From the NCBI GenBank assembly GCA_008632985.1, contig QPGO01000236.1, forward strand, positions 1 through 64,000: a DNA stretch of 64,000 nt, read 5' to 3'. The translations under genes were made by a program, and so were the position numbers. The notes below the pieces were generated by a model. The model did not search any database. It saw only the letters and a program-made list of their open reading frames with translations, and was not told the DNA's origin. The stretch is from Psammoneis japonica. Taxonomy: Eukaryota. This document shows, piece by piece, positions 13,230 through 64,000 of this stretch; the stretch's first letter is position 1; every line of letters begins with the position of its first letter.

Positions 13230-15400
13230 GCTTGGCACCAACCAAAGTAAGAAAAAACAAGACCATCTTTTTATCCAGCTCTCTGGGGTGTTTGCAGTTT
13301 GCAGCACTCCAGGGAAACAAATGTCATGCTTGAAATGCAGTGAGCAGGATTTCATCAATGCACAGCATTTTGGAGTCATCAACTGTTGGATGCCAAGCCC
13401 GCCACAGAGCGAGGAGGGCAGCATGAAAAATCAACCTGAGCTGTGTCTCACACAGCTCAAATTGAACAGATTTAAAATGGTCAAGATTGCAGGGCACAAG
13501 TGGAGCATTTTGCTTGCCCACTGAACAAATTTTCAATCTGATTTTTCGACAACACCCTCCCTTGACTTCTTGTGCTCCACTCTCCTGAGTGCCTCATCCA
13601 CTGATGCTTGCGTGTGCCAACGTCATTGCTGACATCTGCCTGTTGTGCCAGGATGTGTGCCAGCCTTGTGCCAGCAATGCTTCATTGAGTTGGTGCAAGC
13701 ATGTCCATTGTCTTTGTTCCGGAATCCTGGGAGAGCACTTGGCTTCATTGCGCAGAGTGCAATGGTGCAATTGTGCCCGAATTCTGCAAGCTGTTGGCTG
13801 TGCATTGCAGAGTGCAATGATGCAATGCTGGCCCTGCGCAGATGTGGGGACATGTGGTCACAGTTCAAATCAAACAGATTTTAAAAAAAATTGATGTTGG
13901 GTGCTGCAAGTGGAGCACTTGCCTGTTGCACAAATCATCAATCTGCTTTTGCTGTGTTTTGCAGAGTGCAATGACACAATGCTGGCCCTGTGCAAATGTG
14001 TGGCCACAGTTCAAATCAAACAGATTTTAAAAAATGACATTGGGGTGGTGCAAGTGGAGTGCTTTGCTGCTTGCCTGTTGCACAAAACATCAACCACATT
14101 TCACAACGCCTGCTCCCTTTTGGTGCGCCTGAGCACTTCATCTGCTGACGCTTTTGAGTGCCATGGTCATCATTGGTGTGTCTGCCTGTTTGTTGTGCCA
14201 GGATGCAGGATGCATGTTGGCCTTGCACCAGCAATGTTTCATTGTGTTGGTGGTGCAAGCATGTTCATCATCTTTGTTCCAGGTGAGCCAAGCAAATGAG
14301 GAGCTTTGCTGCCAAAGACAACTCTTTCACAACTTCAACAATGTTGCTTGCCGGCAGCACCTCCACTGGTGGTGAGCTCAACACTCTCACAGCCACCTCC
14401 AGTGTCAAACATCTCTGACAGCTCTGTGAGAAGGAGAGTCTTGCAGCACACTTTGAGACTGGCCATCGCCCCCGCTTCAGCTGGCCAGTGACATTGAGTG
14501 GGGGGGGGGGGGGGCTCTTGTGAGGTCACCTTCACAGTGTGCTCTCACAATGCTCTTGTGAGGTCACCTTCACAGTGTGCCCTCATCAATTGTTCAATGT
14601 GTGCACTGCAGTTGTTGAGAAAGAGAGCTGCGTGCGTGCATTGCCATGCATGCACAAACAACAAGGCCAGAAGATGTCGTCAGTGCACCAAAGAATGCTG
14701 CTGCTGCAACAAAACCCTGTGATCTGATTTTCATCTGTGTGTGGCACCAGTGGTTTTGCAACACTGTCAGCCACTGTGAAGTCAATGGGAGCTTTCCCAC
14801 TGATGGTGCATGTGAGGTGCAAACTGTGAGGGTTGCTTGTGTCTCATCCTTCATTTGCTTGACACTTGCAAATTTCTTTCTTGGCAGCTTTGTCCATGTG
14901 CACCTCAGTTTGAACATTTTGGAAACAGCCCCACCCAGTTGGCACTCCATGCACATTCTGGAGGGACATTCTCTTTCATCAAAAAACTGGCAAAAATTCA
15001 CTCAATCTCCATCATTTTGTGACATCACCTGCTTCTGCATCTGATCTCTCTCATTTTGCTTTTCTACAAAAATTGGTTTCAACCTTGTCATGATTTTTTG
15101 AGGTCTTTGCAATCCAGCCTGCAGGTGCCTTGAGTTTTCCATCAGTTCCCAGTGCCTTGGCACATTTGAGACACTTCTCATGCATCAGCAACCAAGAGAT
15201 TTTGGAGCAGTCTGCTTTTCTTCAACAAAGGTGTCGTGCAAAAACCAAGGCAAATGCAAACCACTTCTTCTCTTTGACTTGCTCATTTTGAGCTTGTGCT
15301 TTTCAGCCATTGGCTTTTAAAATGGCACTTGTTGTGCTTCTTCAAGATCTGCCTGAACAGCTGCTGTTCACTTTTTGACCCTGAGTGCAAGTCATTGCTG
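13230..15400. other. TpA-depleted degenerate repeat region of unidentified origin
   Basis: Almost no TA; internal duplications (CACAGTTCAAATCAAACAGATTTTAAAAAA at ~13859 and ~14006; GCTCTTGTGAGGTCACCTTCACAGTGTGC twice at 14514-14580); poly-G run near 14500. Confidence 0.65.
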
Positions 15401-15689
15401 GGGAGGAACTTGCTGTGAAGATTGTCAAATCATCATGGCAGTCATTGTGACTCACCGTTGCAATGTGACTTGCACCGTTGGGATCAATGTCACTCAAAGG
15501 ACCTCAACAAAGAGACACAGAGAGCTTCCTCTCCTCACAATCTCAGTTTAGCCACTGCAACACCAGCACCTGGAATCGCCCCATGTCCAATGTTCATCAT
15601 CACACTTTGTCTGTTGACTGTGCTCTGGATGTCTTGACGCACTTCCTCTGCACTGAAGACAAGAGATGTGTCAGATGCTTTGAGTGTGG

Positions 15690-17388
15690 TGTCACCCTCA
15701 TCATCTGATGAGGACATTCCATTTGCTCTGACTCTGGCTCAGGTGACTTAGGGAGCAATTGGCTTTTGTAAGAGTGCTGGACAAAGGCTCTTCCAAACTG
15801 GTTTGGAAGAGCTGCCAAGTGGGGAGATGTTCCACTGCACTCCAGGCAAACTCTTTCAGCTCCTCAATGACATTGAGGACAGGGCCAGCTTGCTTGGATG
15901 AAATGACCTGGTGACTGGAATTTTCATGACACCCAAGGACCCTGATGATCCTGATGCAACGCACTCAAACCTGCTCACCAATTGTGGTGAGGTCAGCTTG
16001 GAACACATCAAGAGACACAAGGAGTCATGCATTGTGAGCTCCTGCAAAGGGGCCCAAGACAGTGCCATTCTCGGACACAACTGTCTCATCAACTTGATCT
16101 CAAAAAAGTGGAAAGGATGAGGTGCTGCACATCCATGACAAGTCCCACAAGATCAGAGACAAGCTTTCTGGTTGTTTGCTTCTCAAGGTCATCATTCAAA
16201 AGTCACGTTTTGATGTGAACACAGCCACAAGCATGACCCACATGAAACTCGTGGAGCTTGACCAACATTTTCTCACAATTGGTCATGACATCATGAAGTT
16301 TGGCTCTTCTGCTTGCGGCATTGAGGTCTCATGGTGAAACCATGGAAGACCTCCTGATGAATCTGTTCAAAGGGAGTTTGGCTGCTTCAGATGAGAGCTT
16401 CGTCAAGTGCACTGGAAACAAGCAAGATGAGCACGAGGGTGGCAAGGACATCAGACATCATGCCAACTCACCTCATGATGCTTGCAGACAAGCATGAGAA
16501 CTCAGTTCAGAAGAAGAAGCAGAACTTGTCCAGCAAAGAAGAGGAAAAGATGCTTGCCTTGTGAGCCAAGGTGAAAGGTGTTGAAAAGCAAGCCAAAAAG
16601 CAGGGCACTGCTGGAAACACCGTGGGGATGATTCCAAGCATGGCAAAGGCAAAGATGGTGACAAGGGGGCTGCGCCAATGTGGGTGAAAGAGAACTTGCA
16701 CCCTGCCAAGGATGTGATCTCCAAACCAAGGCATTGGAATGGTGCACCATGCTGTTGCTGCTGCAAGGACCTTGGAGATGGCCACCATGGCAAGTGGCTC
16801 AAGCACACTCCTGAGAATTGTGCATTTGACCTGGAGTGCAACAAGAAAAGGCCAGCTGAAGACAAGAACAGTGAGGATGGACATCATGCCAAGAAGTTCA
16901 GCCACAAGGGCAACAACAAGAGACACCTTGAGCCAGCCAAGGCATGCAAGGCAGTCATTGATGAAGAGGGGTCAGACAAAAAATCCAAATGACTTCCAGA
17001 GCATGGCCATGGTTGTGACTGCTGTGATTGAGTGCCAGATGGAAGCGCAGCTGGAAACCTTGTGATGCTGTGCTGTGCACTGATCATCGCAGACTGTTCA
17101 GTGGCATGCGCTCATTGCAGTCCATCAGCTGCCATCCTTGTCAACTGCTTGTCATTCTGTTGCAACATCCCAGGGCATCTGCCATTCTGCCCACCCAAGT
17201 GCAAGCGATGGTGCAGGCTGCACTCTGGTTGGCAACATTTGACCAACACATTGCACAAGATTGGAGAACAAATTGCGTGCCCCACCTGGGCCACCAGTGC
17301 CAACACTGGCTCATCCAGAAGAGGGAGAATCCAAAAACTCTGCCAGTCCACAGACGTGCTCAAGAGCCCCAAGCGATCATGAGCCAAC
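15690..17388 (+). mobile_element. Hypermutated Copia-type (diatom-like) retrotransposon gag relic, 5' part
   Basis: Recognisable diatom gag motifs FALT, NLLTNCGEVSLEHI (ancestral YG), AQDSAIL, SGCLLLKVIIQKSRFDVNTAT, HGETMEDLLMNLFKG and a Cys/His knuckle-like WNGAPCCCCC..GKWLKHTPENC; broken by stops and frameshifts. Confidence 0.6.
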
Positions 17389-17821
17389 TGCCCCATGCAT
17401 GCACTGGGCACTGAAAAGAAGATGTGTTACGACTTTGTCGTTGTGAAAATTATGAGCTAGTTTAGAGTAGAGAAAATGGGATCGTGCGAATGGGGAATCT
17501 TGCCAAATCCCTGTTCGTTCGCATTTGGATCGCATCAAATCGATCGTGCGTTCGCATTGCGGATCGTGCGAATCAAGCCATCACGCGCTGTGCACGAGTG
17601 ATGTCATCGTGTGGAATCACGCTACCATCGTGGGCCAGACGACGGGCTAGTGTGCTTCACACGGATGCTCTCTTAGCATCCTTCTGGAATTGCCTTAGAC
17701 CTAGAGCCACGCCCTCCTGTGGTCGTGCTTCCCAGGTACGTGTTAACAATACTACGTTGCCACGTACAAGAGGCTTATGCACGGTCTCGCCGTGTTGTCC
17801 AGTAGCGAGGCATACTGCACA
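17389..17821 (-). repeat. Gypsy 3' LTR (433 bp)
   Basis: Gapless alignment to 22704-23136 with 22 differing sites (hand count). Confidence 0.95.
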
Positions 17822-17828
17822 CTCCCCC
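17822..17828 (-). promoter_or_regulatory. Polypurine tract of the Gypsy element
   Basis: Plus-strand CTCCCCC, i.e. GGGGGAG on the minus strand, abutting the TG start of the 3' LTR. Confidence 0.8.
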
Positions 17829-17858
17829 ATGATCAGGGCCGTTAAGTGACAGGATGTC

Positions 17859-20654
17859 TTACTGGTGATAGGGTACAATCTGCCGTAGATTGTACGTATC
17901 TATCAGCGCTCCGTTCTGGATACGCAACGTGCCGTTGTCATATATACGGACAACTCTGGCGGGTCCTGCATAGCTGTCAGAACCATATTTAGAGGATTGT
18001 TCCTGTTTGATAAGTACCAATTGCCCTACGGTATATTGATACTCCTTGCGTTTCTGATTTTCACGCTTGTTGTTTAAGTGGATAAGCTTCTGCTTTCTGG
18101 TGTCTATGTACTTCCACTTAGCACGATGGACAATAGATAAAACCGCATCGCGTCCGAAGACCAATTGCATGGGACTTGCACGCGTGGTCGTATGTACCGT
18201 AGCTCTAATAGCGAAGGCTACTGCGGAGAGGATGCCACTCCATGGGTCATCTTCGTCCAATTCCATATCCTGTACTGAAAAGGAACGTACCATGTTACCA
18301 AGTGTCTGGTGTACACGTTCCACAATGGCATTCGCCTGTGGATTCCGTTTACTTATGGGTTTCTTCAAAATCCCATAGTCATTTTTAATCATCTGGCTAA
18401 ATTCTGCCATAAATTCTGTCCCACGGTCATAAACCACCTGGGTTGGCCACGGACATCTGCATAGCCACGTTTGTTCCACGACGTTTGCTACGACGTCAGC
18501 GCGTTTCGTAGACACTTCTTCAATCTCGAACCACCCGGTTGCTGGGTCAATCATTGTGACTGCCCTTAATTGCAAAGTGTCCTTTCCGCGTCTTTGAATT
18601 TTATATGGCCCTATCATATCTATGCATAGTGTCTCCCATGGAATTATCTCGGCGACCTTTTCTGGTAGCTTCCCATAACGCTGCGTTCGGCGTTTTGTCT
18701 TCTGGCATCGATCGCACTTAACGCACGTAGAATGCACCGTAGACCTCATACTAGGCCAGTAGAAGTGCTGGGCAATAGATATTTCCGTACGTGTCTCACC
18801 TGGATGACACAGTGTCTCGTGGTACCATTCAGTTAGCGGAACCTGCAATGACTGTGGTACTGCGATTTTGTCCTTATGACAGATTAACTGTCGTGATGAC
18901 CCTCCCCCACGATACGCGCGAATGGAGTAGTCGGACGAGTCCTTAGCTCGTGAAAGTAGGCGCTTGTCCTTTTGTTGTGCTTTTTGAATGCGCTTGAAGC
19001 TAACAGGCAGAGATGCATCGTCTTGCGCGTCTGCATTAAAGGCTTCATGCAAAGGACGACTCGATGGAGTGTCTTTTACATCTGGATTGGCCTCGGAAGG
19101 CAAGCTGGGTGCCAGCCGAAGGCGACCAAGAGCGTCAGCGACTGGGTCATGGGTGCCCTTGACACAGCGTAATTCGGGACCGCATTCTTCGCACACCAAC
19201 CGCCAGCACACAACGCGCTCGGCATTGAACACTTTGTACGTAAGATTTTTATGATCAGCACACACAATCACACGATGACCAAGGAGAGTCGTTCGAAATT
19301 CTTTCAACGTCTCCACAATGGCGAGCAATTCTCTCTCTGTTGTTGTGCAATTTAATTGCGCACTGTTGAGCTTTCTGCTGTAAAAGGCGACAGGTTTATT
19401 ATCTTGGGACATGACTGCTCCCAATTGATGTTTAGAGGCATCGGTGTGTGTCTCAAAGGGTTTGTTGAAATCAGGATGTGACAACAAAACATCATCCGAT
19501 GTCACCCGTTCAACGGTTTCAAACGCCTCGTCTTCAACGGACGTCCACTCCCACTTGACAGTCTCGCTTACGAGTCGTGTTGGCGGAGCCAAGACTTCAG
19601 AATGTCTAATCCACGTGTCACGGCAGTGGTTCACCACACCAACAAATGAGCGCAGGTCGCGTTTGTTGGCTGGGGTCGCGATTCGCTTGATGGCGTCGAC
19701 TTTGTCAGGCATTGGTCGCACCCCGTCTCTGTTGACCAGACAACCCAAGTGTTCTAATTGGGTTTGACAGAAGTGAGATTTAGTTGCGTTAACTTTTAGT
19801 CCTGCTTTCTGGACCCTCAACAAAACTTCTTCAAGTTTGTTGAGGTGATCTTCACAGGTGCCTTTCGTCATGACGAGAAGGTCATCTAAGTGCGTTCGAA
19901 CAAACAACAGATCTTCAAACAAGCCTGACATGCGTTCTTGGAAAATGTCTGGCGAGCTGCATGACCCCATGGGCAATGCCTGCATCTCATGCTTGCCCCA
20001 TGGGAAGATGAGCGTGCAGAGCTTCTTGCTGTCAGCATCCAATCGGATGTGACAATGGCCCGTGTTTAAATCCAGCGATGCAGCCCACACAAAGCCTTCG
20101 AGCTTGAGTGGCACATCTTGGATGTGAGGAATCGGATGAGGCAATCGCTTGATCCATTTGTTCAGCTCTCTGAAATCATCAACAAAGTGCACCGTTGAAT
20201 CTTTCTTCGGCATGACAAATGATGGAGCTGCCCACCGGGATCGGTTGATGCGTTTGAGAACACCGACACGCACTGGGCATTCTACTTCTTTATGCAGCGT
20301 AGCTTCGCACGCACAAGGTGCTTCATGCGGACGAGCGTGGCATGGTTCTGCACCCTCCTTGAGTTGGACATGGCAGGGTTCTCCCTTCCATTCTCCCAAT
20401 GTCCCATCAAATGAGGACTCATGGCGTTTCAACAGTGCCAAAAGGTCATTTTGTTGAACTGTGGAAAGTCCCATTGCCCCTTGCGTTGTGTCCTCGAGGC
20501 AGGCCGGCGCGCACTTGGCATCCAAAATGCGTGAAATCCGGTCGGTTTCCGAAGACAAGGCTTCTGGATCTTGAAGATAGAAGGAGGTTTCTGCCGCAGC
20601 ATCTACGTGCCTCATTGGCACTTCTCCATTGACCAATGGCCACTCCATCATCTG
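17859..20654 (-). pseudogene. pol: Gypsy pol (RT-RNase H-integrase); RT and RNase H inactivated by Tyr to His/Cys changes
   Basis: DFRELNK, LDLNTGHCHI, LPMG, RTHLDD (YxDD changed to HLDD), TDAS, ERELLA, DHKNL; integrase HxxxxHPG..CxxC, IDMIGP, DRGTEF, NPQANAIVER, GPA motif. Confidence 0.95.
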
Positions 20655-21101
20655 TGCAGCATGCATGCAGACAAAAGGTCATTTTTGTCACGCCCTTTGT
20701 GACATTTAAAGGCTGCAACACGTCGCCGTGATGCATTGACTCTCATCAGTGGCTGTGTGTTGCACTCCTCCCCATGTGTCACGCATCCATGCGGCTCTTT
20801 ACTGACGTGTGCTGACACTGCACGGTTTTGGCGGAACAGTGTGGGTATGTGCGAAGGAACACACAGAACTGCACAGAGTTTTGCGCGTTCAACAGTGATC
20901 AACGTTGCTGCAGACAACTCCCACTCAGGGTTTCGAACCCCTGGCCTCCTGCCCAATGGTTGCGATGTGCCACTCCGCTGTGAATTCATGGTGCAGCATG
21001 CATGCAGACAAAAGGTTATTTTTGTCATGCCCTTTGTGACATTTAAAGACTGTGGCACATCGCCGTGACACATTAACTCTTGTCAGCAGCTGCACATTGC
21101 A
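20655..21101 (-). mobile_element. TRIM (447 bp, 110-bp terminal direct repeats) inserted in Gypsy pol
   Basis: TDRs 20655-20764 and 20992-21101, TSD TCTG, PPT GGGGAGGAG; removing it and one TSD rejoins FSEQ-MMEW in frame. Confidence 0.92.
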
Positions 21102-21531
21102 TCTGCTCAGAGAAGACAATGTCAATGCCTTGTGTCTCCAGAATGTCACGTCCAATGATCACATCGCACTTGCCCAACTTTCCGTTGTGTGCGTGGACGG
21201 CATGTGCAAGTTCTGCAGTTTCGGACAATTCTGGCAACCGAAATTTAACGGTGCAGTCGTCAGACGCACTGAACGAGCCTGCTGCCGTGGTCCAGTTTGT
21301 CTCAGCCGTTGAATGGCTTCGCAGACGCTTGCAGCATCGACTGTCGAGCAGAGTGCTGCTGGCGCCACCATCTGGCAGTGCCTCAATGGTTTGAGTCTTG
21401 CCCTTGCCACGCCTGGCATTCATGGCTGCAAACAAGATTGGAGTGAGATGAGTCTTTTTAACTCGTTTGCGGGATTGGCCCACAACACGTGTGCAATGGT
21501 AATTCAGTTGTTCATCCACACATTCTTCCAA
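21102..21531 (-). pseudogene. Gypsy aspartic protease region
   Basis: EALPDGGASST (expected ALLDSGAS) and CDVIIGRDIL (expected YDVIIGRD). Confidence 0.85.
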
Positions 21532-21567
21532 TGCATTGAAACCACCTGTGTCGTGTCGGCCCCCTTC

Positions 21568-22642
21568 TCAGGTGTCCGAATCTTCGGAATCACTTGAGTT
21601 GAGGTCGCGGAAGTGATTGAGCTCCTCCTCACGTGCCTTGCACTTTTTCTGAGCGTTGGCAAAGAACTCCTCGACCTTCGATCCGATGAGAGTGTCAACA
21701 TCTTCCTCATTCCGAGGTTTTGCATTGGGTTTGCTGCCTCCGTCATTGGAATGTCCAGTCTTGACATGTTTCATGTGGTGCTTGAGCTGACGGCAATCCT
21801 CCGCATGATGTCCACAGTCAGTCCCGTGTGGCACACACGACTTCTGGGTGTTCCGTTGGGTCATGATCAACGACTCAGGATTGTCCGTTCTACGTCCCCG
21901 CTTGCGTGGAACCTTGGCACGTTGGTCCAGGTTACCTTCGGCAAGCTCGACCTGCTCGATGCGCTCGCAGAACTGTGCAAATTCGGTGACAGTGTGCGCC
22001 AACGGGTCAAAATTCTGCAGCGTCATGAACTTCTGCCATGCGTTCGGCACACCGCACTCGAACATGTCGCATGGTTCGTCATTGGGCAATGGTGCCGGTG
22101 CTTCTCCATCCTCTGTCACGGGTGGAAACTGAGAGACACAGCCGTTAATTTCAACAGCCCTTGCGACAGTCACGAGTGGAAACCTCTGCGGGCTTGCGCA
22201 TGAAGCGCCTCAGATGACGCTTCTGCAATGGTGCCGCCCCATGTGGGAAGATGCTCTCCTTTAGCTTCGCGACGCATGCTGCGCACGCAGCGTTGGTTTG
22301 GGATGCCTGCTTGTCAGTGGCATCATTGAATGACATCAGAGCATCACCCTGTGGCAGGTCACGCACAAGGGCAAATTTTGCTGGCCCGGTCGTCATGTTT
22401 TGTCCTTCGTGCATGCGATCCACGTTGCGCAGAAAAATCAGGAGTGTCTCGCATGTAGCCGCAGAAAGGTGCGGGATGCCCATCTCGTGTGTTGGACCAT
22501 CCGGATCAGCGGGGTTGTTGCGCAGTTTGAATGTCTGGTGCTCGCCCTGCTGCAGCTCTTTCTTCTCCGGCTGAGCGAACAGAATCGGCGGCTCAACCCG
22601 CTTCTTCATGGTCATTTTGAGATTTGTCGGTCCTGCCAACAT
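21568..22642 (-). pseudogene. gag: Gypsy gag (two frames, frameshift near 22160)
   Basis: Directly downstream of the 5' LTR; QKRHLRRFMRKP, GVPNAWQK and a CxxH..H...C knuckle CVPHGTDCGHHAEDC. Confidence 0.8.
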
Positions 22643-22703
22643 TTCGTAGTTTCGTTTCTGCAGATTTCGTCACCTCGCACAACATGCGGGAGCAATGTTG
22701 CTG

Positions 22704-23136
22704 TGCCCTGTGCATGCACTGGGCGCTGAAAAGAAGATGTGTTACGACTTTGTCGTTGTGAAAATTATGAGCCAGTTTAGAGCAGAGAAAATGGGATCGT
22801 GCGAATGGGGAATCTTGCCAAATCCCCATTCGTTCGCATTTGGATCGCATCAAATCGATCGTGCGTTCACATTGTGGATCGTGTGAATCAAGCCATCACG
22901 CGCTGTGCACGAGTGATGTCATCGTGTGGAATCATGCTGCCATCGTGGGCCAGACGATGGGCTAGTGTGCTTCACACGGATGCTCTCTTGGCATCCTTCT
23001 GGAATTGCCTAAGACCTAGAGCCACGCCCTCCTGTGGTCATGCTTCCCAGGTGCGTGTTAACAACACCACGTTGCCACGCACAAGAGGCTCATGCACGGT
23101 CTCGCCGTGTTGTCCAGTGGTGAGGCATGCTGCACA
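22704..23136 (-). repeat. Gypsy 5' LTR (433 bp), the more heavily mutated copy
   Basis: Alignment to 17389-17821. Confidence 0.95.
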
Positions 23137-23320
23137 ACATCATGCCACAGCATTGACTGTGGTTGTGGTGGTGATGCAGGCTCAGCATGAAACCATCTTG
23201 TGACACACAGTGGCCTTCGACACTGATTCTGGGCCAGTTGGGGTTGACAAAAGAGCAACAGGTTGCGTGCCTGATTGCATGGAAGACTTCATTGGTGAAC
23301 TCCAAGATTGCAACAGAGCC
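23137..23320 (+). mobile_element. Continuation of the Copia relic (protease-like segment) after the Gypsy insertion
   Basis: FDTDSGPVGVDKRATGCV..CMEDFIGEL resembles the FDTDS..IG.DN motif of diatom Copia proteases. Confidence 0.5.
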
Positions 23321-28500: not shown

Positions 28501-29066
28501 GCAACTGCCATGGGCTGGTCTTGGTTTGTTTGATTCTTCAACCGTTTGCTGTTTTTTCTTGACCGGGTTCCCCCAGGGTTCTGTGAGAGCTTTGATGGCA
28601 CACACACCCTCCAAGATTACACTCGGATTCCTCAAAGCCAACCAGAGTCCTGCCAAGCTCACCCAAGCTGGCCTGAACAGAGCTGCCAAGTTCTGGAAAA
28701 AGGTGCTGCTGTTCATGAAAGCCTGGTCTCTCCCCCTCAGACATCTCTCAGACAGCCAAAACCCACGTGTCGCCAACCAGAGCACTTGGAAGCAAAAGCA
28801 AATTTAGATGAAAAGACTGAGGGCTGAAAAGGGGTGCTTCTCTCAAACATGTCATGTCATTGCAACTGTGGCATTTTTTGAAGTTGCAGGCATGTGAGAC
28901 AATTTGCATTTAAAAAAAGGCCCTGAGATGACCAAAAATTTGCCAGACAAAAAAGATCAATGTGAAAATGAGATTGACCAAGTTTCTCATGATTCTTTCG
29001 TGCTCATGAGGGCAGACGATGAACATGAGGTGACAACCTCAAGTGCATGAGACAATTTGCATTTTC
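25600..29066. repeat. Hypermutated array of degenerate dispersed and tandem repeats
   Basis: Duplicated blocks 25633-25750/25760-25880, 26095-26220/27895-28020 and 26305-26460/28646-28800; ~240-bp units at 26470-27320; CCATGTGCGCCCCAGGCTGCTTCTTCTTGTTC three times at 27690-27890. Confidence 0.8.
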
Positions 29067-48335: not shown

Positions 48336-48423
48336 GTTGTTTTTTTTTTTTGCCGGTGCAGTGTAAATTTGTAAATGTTTTGCAAACTAAGTGTCGATTG
48401 CAACTCAGCTTTCCTCTGTCTCT

Positions 48424-49389: not shown

Positions 49390-49740
49390 AATTACCGTCG
49401 CGCCCTCTGCGCACGCGAAATTTTCAAACGCGGTGTGCTGCCTCTACCTGCGCATGGAGCGACGTGTGAAGTCATTTTAAACAGATGTGCAGACGCGTTG
49501 AAATGACAAGACGCCTTCAGGCGGTAAAATTTGTTTTGAATCTCGGACTGCTTCTCATCATCACCGTACTTGTACATCCGTGTAATTCAAACGCACGAGC
49601 TGGCACGGCACGTGACGCACTTCTACGCGAGAACTCGCACTGAGATTGCCGTGGGATGATCCTCCCTCCGCGGAGACAAAAACAAGGCGACAACACTTCC
49701 GTCATTGTGTTTTGAAACACATTTCAAATTGAGACACACC

Positions 49741-51172: not shown

Positions 51173-51394
51173 CAGCACAAAATAACTTGCTAAATTTGCA
51201 TAAATTTGCTGACTTTCTGTGCTCAGGCGACTGTGCAGGTGCCTGCCAATTTGCTGGATTTGCACAAATTTGCCGACTTTCTGTTCTTCCTCGTTCCCAT
51301 TTTTCGAACCACAACTGGGGCTACGCCTTTCCAACTAATGCCACAGTTTCGCTGAAAAACACCAACACACTGTGCTGCTAATTTGCAGAGCACA

Positions 51395-52881: not shown

Positions 52882-54252
52882 TCACTGCTGTGTGGTGTGC
52901 TGCTCCATTCCAGCCGTTGGCGATCCACATCCTTCTGCGCACGCAAACGCATGACACTTCGCACCAAATTCCACGTGGCGCGTCTGCACCTGTCTGCGTC
53001 CGTCTTCACTGCTGTGCGCACTACGGCACTGCAGCGCACCCTTTCAAACCTTCATCAATGTTCATTTTTTCCTTCCTTTTCCTTTTCTCTTCTTCTTCTA
53101 TCTGGCTGGGAGGAACTGCTGGACAGCCGGCCTTGTTTTATGAAGGCGATGAGGACTGTTTGAGAAACAAGGCAGCATCAGTTGCCCTTTGTCAAGGGTG
53201 GTCGGTTGCTGCTTTTTTTAGCTCGAATTCAGCCGAACAGCTCGTGTTTTGCATGATTTTTCCTGAATTTCACCGTGCTTCACCGTGAAAACAACAAGCC
53301 ACAAGTCTGTGACGGAGGTGGCCCGTCTGCCAACTCTCATTTGTTTTGTGTTTGTCATGTGTCAAAGATTGCACACACATGAAAAGTTGGCAGACGGCAA
53401 ACTGCGTTTGTGAGAAATGTCGACATTGCCGTCATCGTCGTGCTTCGATCGCGGTGCATGATGTTCTCGTTTCATGCGCGATTGGGGGTGAATGCAAACA
53501 ATTTTTGCACTCAAAAATGAACACTGCAAATGTCCTTGTTCAAATGCCACGGCAATTCTAGGACAAACACGGGGATGACCCCCTGCTTCAATGGAGTGGC
53601 GCACTTTCAAAAATTCGGTGCGCATGCCTGATCTGCACAAAACACACGCATGTAAAAATGCACTGCAAAATTCGTAGAGATGTTTGTTTGAATTCACTTC
53701 ACACACAAACATCACAGCAACGATGCCGGCGACATTGGCAATGGATGCACACAACAACGACAGCGGACTGGGAGGTTGTGATGCACCGAGACAACAACTG
53801 ACATGATGAGAAATGAGATGTCAATGTCAAATGACAATGATCGAGTTGTTTTGGGAGCTGGTTGAGCCATTGGTGACGAAGGGTTTTTGGCATGTGCAGC
53901 TTGGTGCTGAAATCACGCAGAGGTTTTGGCCGCGGTGGGACTGTTGTTTTTCACTTTTTTTGGGGTGCATTTTGTGTTTTCTCGGTCGACCGCATTGATG
54001 AAGCACTGAAGTGAGCATGCGACAACAGATTTTGACGAAAAGTTGGATTTTCATTCATCATGGAGGATCAGCACGGGGTTTTTAACACGGTGAAGCACGG
54101 GGGGACGATTTTTTCACCAGATTTGCAAGATCCTGTCTCCCACCCAATTCGCGTGCGTGATGTTAGTGGATTGATGTATTTTTCACATGCAAGAAGTGCA
54201 ACAACGTCGACATGCCCGACATGACAGACTTCCCGTGCTGTTGTCGTAATGA

Positions 54253-55250
54253 GTGAAATCTTGTTGTGTTCGGTGCGCAGAGTCCAGTGCCATTTGTCCG
54301 CATGCAGACAAGCGCCAGCAGCAACTTGACGAAACCCAAGACGAAGACACCGCTTTTGTTGCCATTGTGTTTGAAAGACTTCCAATGGACTGCAAGGCAA
54401 AGATGTTCTCCAATCTTTCTTTGGATGATTTAAGTGCAGTGGCTGTTTGCAGCAGGGGGTGCAATGAAGCGCGCAACAATGAATCGCTCAATCGAGAACG
54501 AATCGCTGCCATTTTCTTCACCAACAAGAGCACTTCAGACTCATTCCGCAATGTCATCAGGAAAGCAAATGAGAACAATGCCTTTGGAGAAATCTGTGCT
54601 GCTCTTGCAATCAGTGGAGTGGAAAAATGTCGCACTCGCCCTCTTGGTTTTGGACAACTGCCACAAATCCGAAAGTTGGCAATTTCCACTTCAGATCCCA
54701 ACAACAACACGTCAACTCGATGGGACGATACAGAATCCCTTTCCACATTTGTTCAGATGTGCCCAAACGCTCCTGAACTAGAACTAAATGGCATCAAGGC
54801 ATCCGGAGCATTTTGGAGAACAACCTCACATGCCCTTTTGAGCGCAAGGAGGGTCGTTTTGAATCATTGCACCGTTTCCACAGTTCACACAGCAGACGCT
54901 GCTCCGCCGAGCATGACTGACCTTTGCTTCAACAACACTTTATTCGAGAGTAGACATGGGGCACCATTTCGTGACGAAAGATTTTTTTACTTCATTCCTC
55001 TGACAATCTTGAGCGTGTGAGTGTCGCCAATGCATTGCATCCGCATTGGGGTCACAGGTCAGTTCTGAGTGGTCGTCACTGGTGGTGTGCTTGTGCTTTT
55101 GAAGGACCATTGCCTCTAGAGTTCATTGTCAACATTGTTCTTGTTCAAAGCCGGCCCACTCTTTGTTGGCTTAGAAGTGATGTGCTGTCAGCTGACAACC
55201 TGGCCATGTTGCAGAACAAGAGACCCGACATTGAGTTCATGTCGAAATGA
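54253..55250 (+). pseudogene. F-box/LRR-like protein
   Basis: FERLPMDCKAKMFSNLSLDDLSAVAVCSRG is an F-box consensus; CPNAPELEL and a C-terminal LCWLRSD..L..DNLAMLQNKRPDIEF resemble LRR-type diatom F-box proteins. Confidence 0.65.
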
Positions 55251-55299
55251 TGATGATGCAGCGCACGCCAGGCGTGCAGTGGGTGGGCCCTCTGGTGTG

Positions 55300-58200
55300 T
55301 GGAGTGCAGCAGCGCGACCTCTTGCATGGCAAGAGGAGACATCACATGACACAAAACAGTTGCCACAGACACACGCACAAATGGTCTAATCATGTTTTCT
55401 TGTCCATGGCTGCACAACAACAGATGATCAGCTGTGGTGGCGATCGATGGATTTGTCGTCGCGCTGCGCAGAAACGGGAAAAGATTTGTGCGAGGTCCAA
55501 GTTTCTCAAAGCAACACAACCAACATTCAGCACACCAAAAATCTTGGCTGCCAACAATGAAGCCAAACCCTTCTGCTGCTGTTTGAACTCTGACTGCACA
55601 GGCAGCCCCAGCACAAGGCCCTGAGCAGAAAAGCCAGTCCCAGCGAAGTGGCCAAAAGTGCAGAAGAGCTGCTCAACACAAACCAAAGTGCAGTTGAGGG
55701 GTGCAAGCCAAGGCTTTGGCTTCTTGCACCTCTGTGGTGTCACAGCCTCTGAGACTGTCCCACAGCTTGCCCAGCCAATTCGGCCACCTTGGGTGGGCGG
55801 CACCTCTTGCTTCTGCTCAACTTTCCTGCTGCTGCCAGCTGAAGCAACAAAACAGAACATCAAACATCCACTGATGTCCTGCTCCAGGACTCTGGCACAC
55901 TGCATCCATGCTGCACACAACCCTTTGTCAAAAAAGACCCTGACAATGTCATGAGCTGCATGCCCAAACACACACGCCCACATCACCAACCAACTTTTGT
56001 CAATCACTTGTGCTCTGACAATTTGCCAATGAGCTGCTGACCTGAAGTTCCAAGCCTTCCACTGGAAGTTGTTGTTCAGTGTGCAAAAGGGCTGCCCCAC
56101 AGATTTTGGAGCAAGACTCAATTTTTGAAAAATCATGTGGGTCGCAGAAATCAGCATCCACAGGCAGGCCTGCAGCACAGCAACAAGCTCATTCCATCAT
56201 GCCGCAGCTGTCACCATGAAAAAGCTCTTGTTGCACTTTTTTTCTTGTTTCCTTGTTTCCTTGTTCATTGCCCCAGCTGGTGCCACAGAGACTGGCTCAT
56301 GAACAGCCCAAAACAGCAGTGCACTTGCCAATGGAGGTGCTGCTCATAAGTTGCAGTGTGACAACTTCAGCTCTGTTGCAGATCTGCAGTCTTTTGGACT
56401 GGCACTCCTTGTGACTCTGAAGATGAAGAGATTGTGATGTTGAAAAAAAACTTGTTGAGGCTCTTGGCCAACAAACATGCCAAAGTCAGGCACTCTTTTT
56501 CATCCCCTTTTTTCTCAAGAATTTGAGAGCTGGCTTTTTGTGCAGCAGGTCAACACTTTTGCCGTGGCACTCAACATTTGTTGGTGCATGTCAGCAAATG
56601 GCATGATTTCCTTTGACACCTTTGCATCCCCAGAGACACAAAAGTTGTCCAAGCTGCTGTGTCGGTGCTCTTTTTGCTCTGTGGAGGAGAAGGCACACTC
56701 AGCATCACAGCTGCATTGACAAAAGTGACAAGAGCAAAGATGGGGTGCCCGCTGATGATGTCAATCTTTGGAGCACCAAGGGGTGGCTCAAGCCACAGAC
56801 TCAAATGGAGGTGTGCTGTTGCGTGCAGGGTGTGGTTGTGGGACAGCCCAAAAATGTCTTTGCTCAAAAGAAACCCCAACCGGCAACTTGACCCCAGCTG
56901 GCAAAGAAGGAAAAAGGGCAGGAGAGACAACTGCAAAGCTCTCAGACTGGGGCTGGGCAAGATGAATGACCACTTCAAACTCTCAAGTGTTTTGTTCCAA
57001 GCTGTTCAAGGTTGGGGTGGGAATGACCAAGGTGACATGTGCCGCAGGTGCATGCCTGGCTTTGACAGGCGGCTGCAAAAACTTGTGGGACAAGCACCAA
57101 AAACATTGCAAAGATGAGCTGGCCAGCTGTGGGTGCTGCCTCACCCAGACAAACAAACAGGTCAAGAGCGTGCTCTTTGCCACTTGCAGCAATGCACACA
57201 GCAACAATGCATGTTGCTCTCCTTTGATGGCTTGCTGGATCTTGAGCAGCACTTTCAAAACATGCTTTGGGTGCAGTCATGAACACATGAAGGTTTGTCT
57301 GCAGTGCCTTGTGGATCAAGTGAAGCACTGTTCTTGCCAAGTTCTTCTAAAATTTGATCCATCATTGTCTGCAATGCCTGGAAAGTCAGCCAGAAGAAAA
57401 AACCAGCAGAGCACTGCTGTGTGCAACCCCCCAAGAGAGGTGCACACTCCTCTCTGACCAAAGTGGGTTTGAAAGCTGGCACCTTGGATGATGAAAAGCT
57501 GTTGTCTTGGACAATGTTGGCATGACAGAGTCATGCAGCTGCGCACCATGCAGACTTTCTTGTTGAAAGTGTGCCCCCTGGAGGGCATGGCCAAAAAGAC
57601 TTGCAAGATTTTTTCTGTCTGGGGGCTCAACAGCATTGCTGCCAGTTGACAGCCTCTTTGCAAGGAATGCCACAAAAAGAGTGGCAAAGTTGGTTTTGGC
57701 CCCTCTGCTCAGAACAGCAACACTCGCAGGTCTTTTGAAGGTCTTTGACAATCTCCTCTTGTGCAGTTGCAGTGTGAGCAGCCAGTGCTTGGCCCTCTTT
57801 TAAAAAATCCCTGCTGTGACCCATCTCAAGAGCATCACTTTTGTGTGCCATCTGTTGTTGGTGAGGAGGCTGCAGCCCAAATCTAAAGTGCTGGGTCCTC
57901 TGTGACCAAGCTCAGCAGGTCTTTCTCCATGAGCACATGCCAACAAATGCCTTTTCGTTGCTGAGGTGCTTGCACTCAATTCTTGCATGTGATGCACAGC
58001 ACACCAGCCCAACATTTTTGGCTGCTTTGGATGCCGTCTGCTGAACCTCGCCAAGCAAGTCATGCTGCTGTTGTTGACACATCCCTTGCAGAGCTGTTGG
58101 CAGTCACATCGTTTCCATCAACAGTGAGGTCTGTTGTCACCATGACAACAAACACAATTTCTGCTGCAGCACGCCATTCTTGCACCGGCAATTGTCTTTG

Positions 58201-61200
58201 GCAAGGCTGGCTGGATGGCCCTGACAGGAGGTGCTTCCCATGATTTGTTCAAGACTTCAGCATTCGCAATCTGAGCCAACTGCTAAAAACCTCCAGCAAC
58301 CAAAAAGCATCACCTGCCAACATCACCAAGCTCCAACAGGCTGGCTTCTTGATGAAAAGGCTGGAACTGTCGCGTCAACGTTCACTCGCCATCACCTGGC
58401 TGGCAACAACTTGGACATTCGGCTGAGGGAGCTTGAGAATGTACACTGTCTTCCATGTGTGTTCTTCAATGCATGAGACTTTGGGTGACAGATGCTGCGC
58501 TGACCCATGCATTCGTCAGGAACAATGGTGCACCATTTGTCAGGAAGGGACAAATCCAAACAGCGCACCATGCATCAATGTGCCATCAAGTCCAAGAGGA
58601 GAAAAGACCTGCAGAAACCCCATCAATGTCTCAACCAATCACACATTGCACAGGCCCTCTCCAGCCCACTGGCTCTCTAGAGAGGGCCCCAACCAATGAG
58701 ATTGGTCTGGGGTTCAAAATGAGAACAAAGCCCATCTTCTCTTCTTCTTTTGTGCAATCAAGAACTTCTTGTTCTTGACAAGTCTACCATGTGCATGTGT
58801 GTCAGTTCCAGTGCAAATGCGGGATGCTTCTCGTTTTCTCTCAATTCTTGTTGGTTGTCGAGCAGTGCAATTCTTCTTCTCGCAATTTTGATTTTGGTCA
58901 AACCGCACCTGCTGGATTGTCCGCACTTTGCTGTTTCACTCTCTGGAGTGCAAACTGCCGCAAGCCCACAACAATGTCTCACTTCTGCTCATGTGCTGTG
59001 TTTCTTGTGGATGACTTTGGTTGGTCAATTTGCACTCGAGTCTCAAACCAAAGAAAATCCATCTGTCCCTGCTGTTGCATGACAACATCGAGTCACATCA
59101 TGCACAATGTGTTTTACCCGATGGACTTCCTCACACATGTTGTGAACAATGACAGCAACTGACAGCAGCACAAGACGAGTCACCAATCCAAGTTGCAAGA
59201 ATTGTGGATCCAAAAGTTGTCTTGGGTGGACGTGCTTCTCAAAAACTCCTCAAGGCGCGCTTGGCTGCTGGGGCACTCTGTGTGATGACACCCGGAATGT
59301 GGGTTGACATGGTCGAATGTGTGCAAGCCATTGTGGATGTGGGTTGCACCCCACTTCCTCAGGGCAGCAAAACAGGCTTGACACAAGTGCAACACACAGC
59401 TGCTGATGAGAGTCAGTGCATCACGGCGACATGTTGCAGCCTTTGAATGTCACAAAGGGCGTGACAAAAATGACCTTTTGTCTGCATGCACACTGCATTG
59501 TGAATTCACAGCGGAGTGGTTCATCGCAACCATTGGACAGGAGGCCAGGGGTTCAAAACCCTGAGCGGGAGTTGTCTGCAGCAACGTTGATCACTGTCAA
59601 ACACGCAAAACTCTGTGCAGTTCTGTGTGTTCCTTCGTGCGCACCCACACTGTTCCACCAAAACCGTGCAGTGTCAGTGCACATTAGCAAAGAGCCGCAT
59701 GGACGCGTGACACATGGGGAGGAGTGCAACACGCAGCTGCTGACAAGAGTCAATGCATCACGGCGACATGTTGCAGCCTTTAAATGTCACAAAGAGCGTG
59801 ACAAAAATGACCTTTTGTCTGCATGCATGCTGCACAAGGATCTGTTCCATGCTCAGCTCCATCATGGAGGCCAGCGGCAGTGGTGAATGTGAAGAAACCC
59901 AGCGCAACATTCCTCATTGACAACAGCAAACGCATCGTGTGTTTGGGTGCAGCTGGCTCAGCGACAATGGCATCCAAGGTTCAACTGTGGTTTCCAAACA
60001 GGGCATCGCATTTCATCTTAGGAAGTGTCTTTTTGAACCCCACCACGGCAGCTGTGGCATCTTGTTCGGCTTGGGTGGGATGCAACTTTGCCAGGGACAG
60101 GCTTCTGCACGGATCAAGCCATCTCATGGATCAAAACAAGTGGGGCAAAAATGTCATGTCCGTTGTCAATGCCTTGGCTGTTCATGTCATTGAAGATGAA
60201 GACTTTCCTTCAATTGTGGAAAAGCAATTCAGCCCACAGATGCCTGCACACAGCAAACACCGACGAGTTTGGAGAAGTTGTTGCATCTGATCTTTTTTTG
60301 ATTCCAGAACTTGTTTTGGCAGTTCAGCAGCTTGTGAGCATTCATTTGGTGTCAGCGTCGTCCCATGAGACTCATGTGCCGCCGTTGGACAGCTCACAGC
60401 TCTGCTTGTCAGTCGTGGGAAGCGCATCGTCCCACTTTTTCATGGCACAGAGCGCTTTGTTTGTTCTGACTCAGGATCTCCTCCAGACAGACAGATCAGT
60501 TGCACCCCATTTGTTTTTTGCAAATGACACGCAGCAAGGAAGCCAGCTCAGTCACTGCAAGACATTGCGAGGCCGGCAGGAGGCCCTCTGTCCTCTGTTG
60601 TCATGAAAAAGCCCTGTCGTGGCGTTTTGTTTGTCAGAAGAGGCTGCACGAGCACTTGCACTGGACACACGGGGAACCTTGTCACTTGCCAGTGCAGCCA
60701 GTCCAGTCGACATGGATGTCCCTTCTCTGAAGAGCCTCTTTGCGTCTGAGAAAGCTGACAAAACTAGCAACTTTAACAGGAAAATGAGGGCTAAACTGGA
60801 GCGCATGTTTGAGGTCGACAGCGATGTGTGCGACACGGCCAACTTCTCAAGCTCGTCAAAAGGGCCAGACCTGAGGAAGAGAAGAATCCGGTGGCCTCCA
60901 CGGAGGTGGAGAAAGTGTGAAATCAGAGGGGAAAGGTCATGTGTTTCTCGTCAGACCGAGAGCCGCGTTGTTGCACTTTCAACTTGTTTGGGGATCCCCT
61001 GCTGGAAGAGATGCTCTGTTGTGTTGCAAGCAGCTGCAACGCCGAAATTGCCTGTCGTGTGAGTCAGAAGTGGAAGGTGCTTGGGTGACACAATGTTTTG
61101 CCGAGAGCAAATTGAATCATGGACCAAAATTTCAAAATTTGAAAATGCCTTTTAATTGCTGCATTTGCCAAAAACCGTTGTCGTCAATTGGAAATGTGCA

Positions 61201-64000
61201 CGAGTCGTTGTGCTGTGGCCAGAGACGTCAAGAAGGTCGTGTCATTAAAGTCGCTTTGCAGATCCTGCGCAGAACGCACACAAGGCAAAAGGCGAAAAGA
61301 CTTTTAGACACACAAAAGTTCGTAGATGGAATGATGCCTTGCATGTGACCATTGACACTTCTTGTGCTTCGCAGCAAGATCCCGTGAAAACTCCAAAACA
61401 TGCAAAGAGCAGCACATCGCAATGACATCCGCCATTGTCCGACAACCAGCCAACACCATCACGTCTCTGTCAACACCGTTTGAGGCAAGCGACGCTTCAT
61501 CCTGCAAGCATTCATTGTGATCATTGATCATGCTGACCACTGTTGTTGGTGCTTTTGCAGCTTCTAGAACCAGAAGACACTCACGGACTGTGCGATTGTG
61601 CAACCGCAAAAAGAGCAGCAGCACCAGCCATCGAGAGATGGCACGATTTGTCTGCCACAAGAGCAACCATCATCACTCAACATGAGCTCCTTTGCCATCA
61701 ATTCATTGCATCTCTTTCGACAAGGCTCAAAACATCACACCTGCACCCTTGATTGCAGAAAGGAGCTTCCCAAGCTCCGGCATCAAGTGGATTGTCTTCT
61801 GCAGAAATTCCCCGATTCGCGCAACTCAAACATTCTGCTCGGTGTTCATCCACCCTTCCGACACTCCCGTGCATTTTGCATGGCGAAACACTCCATCCCA
61901 CCATGGCGAGTCTGTCGGTTGCGGTGGCGTCAATGTTGACATGGGAAGCAGAATCGGGGCATGAATGTCTTGCTCACACCCATGAGAAGATCCCTGAATG
62001 GCAACCTTGCTTCCCAAACTCGATTTAAGTTGCCATTTCTACATTTTTGAATGACTCACCTCATTTTGTGCATTGTTTGCTGCCTCCAACAGAGTGCAAG
62101 TCAGCCAAAAACCTCACCGTCAGAGGATTTGTCAATCGCCAATGTGTCCATTTGATGGTTCAACAAAAGCAGTGGATGTCTAGAAGGGTGCTTCCCCAGA
62201 GAAAAATTCTGGATGGTGCAACACAATGTGAAGAGTGCCAAGGTGGTGCCCGATGAACTTCTTTTCAGCATGTTGCTTCACATTGACCACGACTCCTTTC
62301 TTCGTGCATGTGGACGATGAGCCAGGAGAAAGATTGAGGAGACTCGCAGTCAGCTCAAGACTGGTGATCTTTGTGGCGCAATCATTGTTAAAATCGTTCC
62401 CGAGCACGCAAAGGAGCAATCATGCACTTGTGCCAGTGAATTCCAAGTCGTTCGCAATGACCGAGTTTTGAGACACACAAAACCTGATGAAGTGAAGGCA
62501 GCTTTACATTCCACTGACAATGATGAAGAAACTACATTGTCTCCTGACAAAAGCTTGTCATCATCAAGCCATGTGGCTGCCATTTCTCCAGAAAAACACA
62601 TCAAGCTGAGTGGCTGCTGACCCCCACAAGACTGTGATCAGACACTTTGAAGACTCAATCAAGAGCCAAAAATCTAGTCCACATGAACTAGCGTCAGTTC
62701 TGTCTGACCTGACATTGGAGAGAATGTGTTGGTCCAGGTTTGTCATCTGCAAAGATTCCACCATCTCTTCACTGAAGTCAATTGTGGCGGAGAAGGAGGA
62801 GTTGGCATGCGCCTCAGCTGACGCATCAGCTGACAACACCTGTGTGCAATGCAACAAAAACAATGGTGAGTGCAAGGCAGATCATTGACTGCCATGCATG
62901 AGTGCAAGCGGTCTTCAAGAAGTTGAGGCACGCGCGCAGCGACGGCCACACAAAGAAACAAAGAAAAGCATGACCCGTCTCCCACAGCAAGGGCCAGAGC
63001 AAACACAGATGTTGCTTGAGATTGACTTGACTGGTGAGTGCTTTGTCCTCTCTGATGAAGAGCCCACTGCAAAGTCTTGGGCACCATTGTGCTTTCTGGC
63101 CACCGACGACAAACCTCCACAATCTTGGTGTCAAGTTTTTCTCAAAGATGAAAGTTTTGGCGAAGAACCGAGAGTCAAGGTTGAGCATTGCAGCAAAGGA
63201 AATTAAAAAAACCAGAGCTGCTGGAAAATTTGCCTTGGTGTTGCAGTCAAATGCAAACAGTCACCCACCCATCACTGCCTCCATTGCAGAATCCATCTCT
63301 CCGATGACAAATGCCACACATCCAGCATTGGAGTCATTGCAGGTGCCAATTGTGCCAATGCCAACACCACCCACTCCAACTTTTCCAACTGAATGTTGCC
63401 GGCTGCTCCAATGCCAAACACGACAATGCCGCCTGTGTCAACGATGCTGTCAATGATGACACCTGCACCAACACAAACACCGCTGTGCTGACCACATCTT
63501 GCTCCAACCTCCAATGCCAAGTCCCGCACAGACAGCCACCCAGCACTGCCTGCTCCAACTGCAATGCCACTTGCGCCAACCAATGCCACCGACTGAATCG
63601 CCGGCAGCTCCAATGCAAAAGATGATGCCACCTGCATCAACGACACCATCCATGACACCACCTGTGCCATGCCAAAGACTGCAACATCAAAATGTTGCGA
63701 GTGTCATGCAAATGCAGCTGTCCATCACAGTGTGGTCATTTCACACCCAAAGGAAAAGCCATTGTCATCCATCTGCGAAAGGTGGTCATTGAAAGAAAAA
63801 AATGTGAGGCATTCAAAAAGCTGAAAAGGTCATGGGATGATCACACACAAAGTCTCGCATGATTTTTCTGCAGCGGGTTGAAGAACAGACAATGTGCCAG
63901 GCCTGCGGCCACAATGTCCCACCTTTCACGTGGTGGGGGAGGGACCTGGAGAGGCGTCTTGCAGCCATGTGCATGTCAATGGGAATCTTTTGAAAATGAC
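55300..64000. other. Strongly TpA-depleted region of unidentified degenerate coding and repeat sequence
   Basis: TA almost absent; protein-like fragments (60619-61062, 61145-61348, 62470-63206) cannot be assigned by eye. Confidence 0.6.
59388..59834 (+). mobile_element. Second copy of the 447-bp TRIM
   Basis: TDRs 59388-59497 and 59725-59834, TSD CAAG, PPT GGGGAGGAG; same length as and colinear with the reverse complement of 20655-21101. Confidence 0.92.

Follow-up and report, generated by a model that had tools for sequence, protein, structure and literature searches.

The window analyzed here is a stretch of 64,000 nucleotides (contig QPGO01000236.1 of assembly GCA_008632985.1, positions 1 to 64,000, deposited for Psammoneis japonica). 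It carries a host-like gene for an RNA-dependent RNA polymerase (RdRP), a Ty3/gypsy retrotransposon flanked by long terminal repeats (LTRs) and a tandemly duplicated Helitron, and large parts of it are almost devoid of the dinucleotide TpA. The original prediction for this DNA held that TpA had been converted to TpG and CpA, through transitions from A:T to G:C on both strands, by a process directed at silenced repeats. On recount, the TA-poor domains at 4.0-5.85, 13.2-17.4, 19.3-25.3, 25.6-29.06 and 34.6-64 kb had the same limits as predicted, and the combination of low TA with abundant TG and CA was borne out by a scan of observed-to-expected (obs/exp) ratios in 1-kb bins and by TA density. 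Between positions 13,001 and 64,000, TA obs/exp was 0.00-0.30 in 44 of the 51 bins, with the seven exceptions at 17-19 kb and 29-34 kb. Before 13 kb, only 3 of 13 bins (at 4-7 kb) had ratios of 0.30 or less, and the other ten had 0.42-0.70. Within TA-poor bins the obs/exp of TG and of CA was 1.3-2.3, both products being enriched, at an overall G+C content of the window of about 49% (base counts). Domain borders are abrupt: at 29.0-29.1 kb the count rises from 0-1 to 11 TA per 100 bp. The longest runs free of TA measure 1,659, 1,654, 1,354, 1,091, 1,037 and 1,001 bp.

The RdRP gene (5996..8630, plus strand; PF05183, E=1.6e-10 and 2.1e-12) was used as a control for host-like DNA. An exhaustive search recovered its closest relatives, at 41-43% identity, from metagenomes and one MMETSP transcript. 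Atlas neighbors of the RdRP ORF (open reading frame) scored no higher than 0.83, and a word-indexed search with it had no match of similar length. All three conserved Tyr residues are kept (3/3, a small sample). Host-like DNA contains 770 TA in 17,303 bp, or 44.5 per kb. The corresponding value is 9.4 per kb (260 in 27,804 bp) where TA is depleted but CpG is nearly normal, and 1.8 per kb (23 in 12,504 bp) where both dinucleotides are depleted, in agreement with the claim that host genes are spared. The start of the RdRP frame (5996-6700) is itself TA-poor, with 6 TA in 700 bp, contains a 57-bp tandem repeat at 6381-6556 and has no homology to other RdRPs. This segment represents either a spill-over of mutation into the 5' end of a host gene or a relic that lengthens the frame since stops are absent.

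An independent view of the same DNA was obtained from one public DNA sequencing run, here called X1, which contains 84% of the sampled words from 13.3-17.3 kb. X1 contigs, at a k-mer depth of about 55, were compared with TA-poor single-copy stretches and showed 13 differences in 1,855 nt, 7 in 1,598, 1 in 739, 0 in 678 and 3 in 651, hence 99.3-100% agreement. The differences are mostly transitions, and one of them in the old domains described below restores a TA (among the 40 of 247 variant places listed). The X1 contigs thus carry the same TA-poor sequence, and TA poverty is therefore not an assembly artefact. X1 also contains a joint from 17384 to 23135 (depth 56.2) with a single CAAC, which is the empty site of the gypsy element. 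Since this empty site is found at full single-copy depth (56), X1 must derive from a strain or haplotype other than that of the assembly.

The gypsy element (17389..23134, minus strand) has LTRs of 433 bp at 17389-17821 and 22704-23134, a 4-bp target-site duplication (CAAC) and RVT_1, RNase H and integrase domains in Pfam. With its site empty in X1 and its target-site duplication intact, it is a young insertion. Its depth in X1 ranges from 12,600 to 67,000, which implies some hundreds of copies (about 200-1,000). Aligning its polymerase with 40 homologues (53-61% identity) revealed that 13 of 14 conserved Tyr residues in the TA-poor part are changed, 8 to Cys and 5 to His; both strands of a single element were thus hit, confirming the predicted strand symmetry. 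Other conserved residues of the same part are intact (Phe 12/12, Pro 16/16, Asp 12/12 and Ala 16/16), and in the TA-normal part of the polymerase 8 of 11 conserved Tyr residues are kept. All motif changes that had been predicted are present, namely GYYHI to GHCHI (amino acids 208-209), Y-x-DD to H-x-DD (263), EYLGY to EHLGC (310 and 313) and NYYRD to NHCRD (351-352). Further shifts in the alignment, from Ile to Val, Met or Thr and from Leu to Ser or Pro, fit a loss of TA within or across codons. The Tyr content of the element proteins in the window is 0.5-0.8%, compared to 3.4-3.8% in their homologues, and all homologous proteins matched (120/120 for gypsy and 18/18 for the Helitron) have 2.7-4.8% Tyr.

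Only part of this gypsy copy is hypermutated. The affected 5' two-thirds (19345..23134, minus strand; TA obs/exp 0.08-0.41) comprise the 5' LTR, gag, protease, reverse transcriptase (RT) and part of RNase H. With rising coordinate, the ratio falls from 0.85-1.37 at 17.6-18.8 kb to about 0.4 at 19.0-19.7 kb and about 0.1 between 19.8 and 23.1 kb. The two LTRs differ at 24 of 433 positions (5.5%), and the losses are one-sided: 11 TA were lost in the 5' LTR and none in the 3' LTR, and seven of the eight one-sided CpG losses also lie in the 5' LTR, with one in the 3' LTR. Since the LTRs are diverged by 5.5% and the flanking single-copy DNA differs by 0-0.7% from X1, the gypsy copy has accumulated mutations at a much higher pace than the DNA around it, and along part of its length only. 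Nine variant places are listed between 20.8 and 22.3 kb, and at 5 of them this copy reads TG but TA is present in other X1 copies. The one-sided LTR losses in an insertion that is absent from X1 show that the mutation acts on already integrated DNA. A control set of 78 related gypsy loci from metagenomes had TA obs/exp of 0.60-1.18.

The Helitron provides a second, different record of the same process. A tandem duplication lies inside the element and gave rise to the segments 34322-39147 and 39148-43977. Copy 1 (34322..39147, minus strand; 95.8% identity to copy 2 over 4,831 bp) is a Helitron segment whose open reading frame (ORF) 35411-39217 has a PIF1 helicase domain, and copy 2 (39148..45898, minus strand) has the full Rep-helicase frames 40239-41864 and 41744-45898 with Helitron_like_N, DUF6570 and PIF1 domains in Pfam. 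A PDB sequence search with the Helitron ORF gave 0 matches. In an alignment of the Helitron protein with 16 homologues, conserved Tyr had become His or Cys at 16 of 23 positions in copy 2 and at 12 of 19 in copy 1, whereas copy 2 keeps conserved Trp (12/12) and His (17/17). The catalytic Y-x-x-x-Y pair is lost as predicted, having become C/H in the first copy and C/C in the second. Consequently, the prediction that a retroelement and a DNA transposon are both affected holds for the Tyr losses of gypsy and Helitron alike.

In the alignment of the two Helitron copies, 211 of 4,848 positions differ, and transitions account for 199 of these differences. Sorted by dinucleotide, they comprise 55-58 doubles with TG in one copy and CA in the other, 33 singles of TA versus TG or CA, 29 singles of CG versus TG or CA, 12 other transitions and a handful of transversions, which supports the claimed A:T to G:C transition with a TpA bias on both strands. 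A TG-versus-CA pair needs a TA or CG ancestor and therefore a separate hit in each copy. The proteins tell which ancestor applies: at 13 columns with Cys in one copy and His in the other, Tyr is the commonest residue of the homologues in 8 and Arg in 0. Because it is Tyr and never Arg that is found at these codons, the ancestral dinucleotide was TA. With an equal or larger number of hidden sites added that have the same product in both copies, the implied ancestral content is about 190-220 TA in 4.8 kb, or a TA obs/exp of about 0.65-0.7. This is like host DNA, and essentially all of the depletion therefore occurred after the duplication. A homogeneous model of independent hits was rejected for the Helitron TA loss, as it predicts about 3 TG/CA doubles and not the 55-58 seen.

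The targeted dinucleotides are not equally mutable. In the Helitron pair, the ratio of sites mutated in both copies to unmutated sites was 16:3 for R-TA-Y (R, purine; Y, pyrimidine) and 8:17 for Y-TA-R (odds ratio 11, p=0.0008). Survival of TA relative to host density follows the same flanks, rising from 0 for ATAT through 0.04 (ATAC), 0.05 (ATAG), 0.09 (ATAA), 0.16 (GTAC), 0.26 (CTAC), 0.36 (GTAA), 0.40 (TTAA) and 0.44 (CTAA) to 0.56 for CTAG. RTAY is thus the most and YTAR the least mutable context, and the TA remaining in old domains is almost all CTAA and TTAA. The share of ATA/TAT among trinucleotides drops from 2.32% to 0.11% and then 0.01%. Shifts in other trinucleotides (ACA/TGT +11.9 per kb, ATG/CAT -1.1), which are confounded by element composition, suggest TAT to TGT. 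Change rates in the Helitron pair are 0.0-1.3% of sites in AA contexts and 1.4-4.3% in TA-type contexts, the doubles not yet counted. Error-prone synthesis of the Pol-eta type, which changes WA to WG (W, A or T) and had been among the candidate mechanisms, is a poor fit since AA contexts are unhit.

Loss of TA is accompanied by a slower loss of CpG. Among 128 windows of 500 bp, 62 are poor in TA only, 27 in TA and CpG, 39 in neither and none in CpG only. Since no window is poor in CpG only, TA is lost earlier and CpG later in the same places. The Helitron pair has its 29 CG-type singles against 204 conserved CG, and together these data show that decay of CpG to TpG or CpA accompanies TA loss at a several-fold lower rate. 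A further consequence concerns reading frames. The density of TAA plus TAG per kb and strand falls from 21.1 in host-like DNA to 6.3 and 1.7 in the two TA-poor classes, and TGA stays at 20-26. The many long overlapping frames of the window, and the dead gypsy polymerase frame that stays open over 939 codons, exist because TAA and TAG have been erased. In the non-coding relics between 13 and 64 kb TGA is nearly the sole stop, and many frames of 110-370 codons are open on both strands.

The remaining TA-poor DNA has little recognizable content. Three stretches have lost both TA and CpG (CpG obs/exp 0.1-0.4), are single copy in X1 at 90% likeness, have no Pfam match and are read as old relics. 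The first of them (13230..17388; TA obs/exp 0.00-0.19, CpG 0.11-0.35, X1 depth 55-118) includes a TA-free run at 15769-17428. The second (23135..25290; TA obs/exp 0.03-0.08, CpG 0.13-0.19, X1 depth 57-66) is the continuation of this old domain on the other side of the gypsy insertion that split it. The third (25611..29060; TA obs/exp 0.00-0.05) has internal tandem repeats of 238 bp and 75 bp and TA-free runs of 1,654 and 1,354 bp. Between the latter two lies a small high-copy island with normal TA inside TA-free DNA (25290..25610, about 320 bp; 5, 3, 6 and 1 TA per 100 bp), which has a depth of about 4,000 in X1, roughly 70-fold, and loose ends at 25292 and 25354. The island probably represents a small element of young age or a solo LTR. 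Further upstream, 3973..5850 (TA obs/exp 0.07-0.16, 0-2 TA per 100 bp) is a degraded repeat fragment without Pfam match, related to 53209-53574 at 70% identity across 385 bp. The stretch 29060-34300 has normal TA, a lower G+C content (39-44%) and tandem repeats of 240 bp and 90 bp. X1 depth is high at 28.7-30 kb, and many variable joints lie at 29.08-29.5 kb.

Beyond the Helitron, 45900..64000 is TA-poor throughout (TA obs/exp 0.01-0.24 in 18 of 18 1-kb bins) and without recognized content other than fragments. It includes a CpG-poor part at 55-58 kb and a gypsy fragment (59388-59836) that is 89% identical to 20653-21101 in inverted orientation. Tandem repeats of 129 bp and 248 bp at 46038-46611 lie just past the 5' end of the Helitron. 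The ORFs of at least 110 amino acids scanned in this domain had no Pfam match at E<=0.001, nor did any of the 91 TA-poor ORFs (0/91 at E<=0.001). When 20 TA-poor ORFs were rescanned at E<=1, 8 had sub-threshold matches alone. One of these concerns the SET domain, whose terminal Tyr had been predicted to be changed to Cys: ORF 51398-52021 (minus strand) matches PF00856 over profile positions 1-102 of 105, with an E value of 0.026 and 15.4 bits, below the cutoff of 22.4 bits, so that the match itself can be recovered and the claim built on it is only weakly backed. Its surroundings at 46-55 kb are TA-poor with 51-59% G+C and near-normal CpG, and, judged from sequence, the ORF could be a captured or virus-derived gene. 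A nearby frame of 369 amino acids (50063-51169, plus strand) has eukaryote clusters as Atlas neighbors (score 0.96), with diatoms among the few that have taxa. A search with Rfam gave 0 matches across the window.

A process with a closely similar signature has been described in the alga Bigelowiella natans, where 231 of 302 new substitutions in mutation-accumulation lines fell in an integrated nucleocytoplasmic large DNA virus (NCLDV) and a virophage (Mettrop et al., bioRxiv 10.64898/2026.01.13.699255; our statements on B. natans follow the accessible parts of this preprint). In these viral regions 230 of the 231 new mutations were A-to-G or T-to-C, all on TpA according to the text, at a rate about 1,000-fold over background and in some lines only. 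Across the B. natans genome there are 124 TpA-poor clusters, and TpA-poor coding sequences are enriched in RT and DDE transposase domains. The authors propose a role in defence and, as mechanism, adenine deamination with an ADAT2-type candidate. The original prediction, which knew of no description of such a system, is superseded on this point; our literature searches returned no description besides this preprint.

The two cases agree in several respects. In both, TpA only is targeted, TpG and CpA are the products, both strands are hit, TpA-poor clusters rich in CpA and TpG result, and the mutation is confined to foreign, mobile or silent DNA and spares host DNA, the host spectrum of B. natans being ordinary. 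They differ in their targets, which are an LTR retrotransposon, Helitrons and unrecognizable relics in the window and an NCLDV and a virophage in B. natans, and in the degree of depletion, since TA obs/exp in the TA-poor parts of the window is near-totally reduced to 0.0-0.2, compared to 0.45 in the B. natans NCLDV. Three features of the window, namely its flank rule, the mosaic structure of a single element and the CpG decay in the same places, are not described for B. natans in the accessible parts of the preprint. The host ORFs of the window, uninterrupted over 1.2-1.95 kb, are a poor fit to the mean exon of 159 bp given for B. natans in the accessible part of PMC12730881, and G+C is about 49% in the window versus 45% in B. 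natans.

We consider it likely that a process of the host converts TpA into TpG or CpA, an A:T to G:C change on either strand, in resident mobile DNA, that it is directed by the silenced or foreign state of this DNA, that it works by adenine deamination and that it is the process at work in B. natans. The sequence shows that the mutation acts on integrated or duplicated DNA, on each copy independently, and runs nearly to completion, fastest at R-TA-Y and slowest at Y-TA-R, and that it can cover part of one element only. Element proteins are thereby destroyed, with Tyr changed to Cys or His at positions that include the RT Y-x-DD motif and both catalytic Tyr of the Helitron, and the erasure of TAA and TAG stops lets dead elements keep long open frames. 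Targeting would follow the silenced or foreign state of the DNA and not its copy number. The chemistry may be a conversion of adenine to hypoxanthine in DNA by a deaminase of the ADAT2/TadA type. The natural tRNA target of this family is an A preceded by U.

Several observations weigh against this reading. The bursts in B. natans, as far as the preprint's accessible parts describe them, came without CpG changes, whereas the CpG losses of the window share an LTR with the TA losses, and the co-located CpG loss could reflect a different or additional agent. It is from the shared signature that we infer the sameness of the two processes. In the Helitron pair, strand-coordinated changes showed no significant clustering (adjacent-same p=0.39 and 0.053, runs p=0.14, longest run p=0.37). 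Nor did the flank rule resolve to one strand: among 21 informative polarised events, a 3' pyrimidine followed the mutated A in 13 (p=0.38). The gypsy mosaic could have arisen by gene conversion of the 3' end from an unmutated copy. The metagenome control set for gypsy is biased, as one of its two search patterns includes Tyr and hypermutated relatives could escape it. Finally, X1 may be a culture of the same species, and its platform is not on record.

Other known systems share single traits with the window. The repeat-induced point mutation (RIP) of ascomycete fungi is likewise a dinucleotide-specific transition hypermutation of mobile DNA that inactivates elements and leaves compositional domains. 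According to the RIPCAL abstract, RIP makes TpA from CpA by C:G to T:A changes. The prediction that RIP works in the reverse direction is therefore correct: RIP raises TpA and creates stops, whereas the window loses TpA and with it TAA and TAG stops. RIP also depends on duplication over the whole repeated length, unlike the partial mutation of the high-copy gypsy element and the high-copy islands with normal TA seen here. APOBEC3, which edits retroelement cDNA, and ADAR, which hyper-edits repeat RNA, resemble the window in that mutation of the deaminase type serves to defend against mobile or viral nucleic acid, and ADAR shares the 5' U/T preference. These enzymes act on single strands or RNA before integration and leave strand-biased G-to-A or A-to-G changes. 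In the window both strands of integrated DNA are hit, a DNA transposon included, and LTRs have diverged one-sidedly. Deamination of 5-methylcytosine (5mC) at CpG yields the same TpG and CpA products and is present in the window as a slower companion. It is unable to remove TpA, and TA loss always precedes CpG loss in the window.

The same phenomenon could be explained with thymine as the target, in that a dioxygenase of the TET/JBP type oxidises T in TpA to 5-hydroxymethyluracil or 5-formyluracil, which mispairs with G and results in T-to-C. 5-Formyluracil is mutagenic towards T-to-C, and the symmetric signature suits this chemistry equally well, since T-to-C at R-T-A is indistinguishable from A-to-G at T-A-Y. 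A weak lead also comes from the frame 50063-51169, which is near an Atlas cluster with Tet_JBP in 13% of its members (score 0.95, recognition 1831, below the 2300 mark). Pfam, however, finds no Tet_JBP domain in this ORF even at E<=1, the ORF sits in a mutated domain and is thus a victim and not obviously an agent, and the candidate named in the accessible parts of the preprint is an ADAT2 homologue. We regard a thymine target as unlikely. Still less probable is a homology-sensing, RIP-like targeting in which duplicated DNA is recognized and both copies are mutated. All identified targets in the window are indeed repeats or their relics, and TA loss in both, one or none of the Helitron copies (about 116/33/45) is overdispersed relative to independent hits, the pattern expected if paired copies are mutated together; site context accounts for much of this overdispersion. 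Against such targeting speak high-copy stretches with normal TA, namely the 3' 1.9 kb of gypsy (X1 depth about 17,000), 25.3-25.6 kb (about 4,000) and 29.1-30 kb (1,100-2,700), as well as the gypsy copy, which is mutated over its 5' 3.8 kb only, though the whole element is repeated. The main target in B. natans was a single-copy integrated NCLDV (bioRxiv 10.64898/2026.01.13.699255, accessible parts). Targeting by repetition as such, which the original prediction had assumed, is thus not supported.

Editing of element transcripts by an ADAR-like enzyme, fixed by reverse transcription, would account for retroelements among the targets, and ADAR prefers a 5' U according to the discussion of the same preprint. 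The Helitron is a DNA transposon duplicated in place, which excludes RNA editing for this element, and its tandem copies have diverged by independent hits. Mutations on both strands of one gypsy element, the one-sided difference between the LTRs of one insertion and the saturation of old non-coding relics are further points against editing, and we find it highly improbable. An artefact, be it an assembly or base-calling error at modified bases or a native TA-poor composition of imported elements, deserves equally little credence. It is true that the sequencing platform is on record neither for the assembly nor for X1. Yet the X1 contigs match the TA-poor sequence at the depth and agreement given above, with differences that are mainly transitions and seldom restore TA. 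A native composition, in turn, cannot yield the TG-versus-CA discordance between copies or the loss of Tyr at conserved sites, and relatives have normal TA.

A wider set of propositions goes beyond the preferred reading of a host process directed at silenced or foreign DNA. These are that the source is a eukaryote other than Bigelowiella, that TpA hypermutation serves protists in general as a defence against transposons, that silencing and not copy number directs it, that it has a four-base R-TA-Y specificity and proceeds regionally from the 5' end of a new insertion, and that its mechanism is linked to the deamination of cytosine or 5mC at CpG, for instance through one deaminase acting on A and C in silenced chromatin. 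That all of them hold jointly is possible but doubtful.

For annotation, the window carries a warning, as dead elements keep long frames on both strands and gene finders will call orphan genes in them. The flank preference is a property that any candidate enzyme must reproduce, and the young, half-mutated gypsy copy with its empty-site allele is a natural reporter of the process. The enzyme and the targeting signal proposed here are what we infer from this pattern. From its sequence, the window appears to be a further case of the recently described TpA hypermutation. Its new features are transposons as targets, a depletion that is nearly complete, a flank rule, a mosaic inside one element and CpG loss in the same places. 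Before the 2026 preprint, no programmed A:T to G:C mutation of genomic DNA was known, and the accessible parts of that paper report it for two integrated viruses of one alga. The window adds the same signature, near completion, on ordinary transposons of both classes and after their integration.

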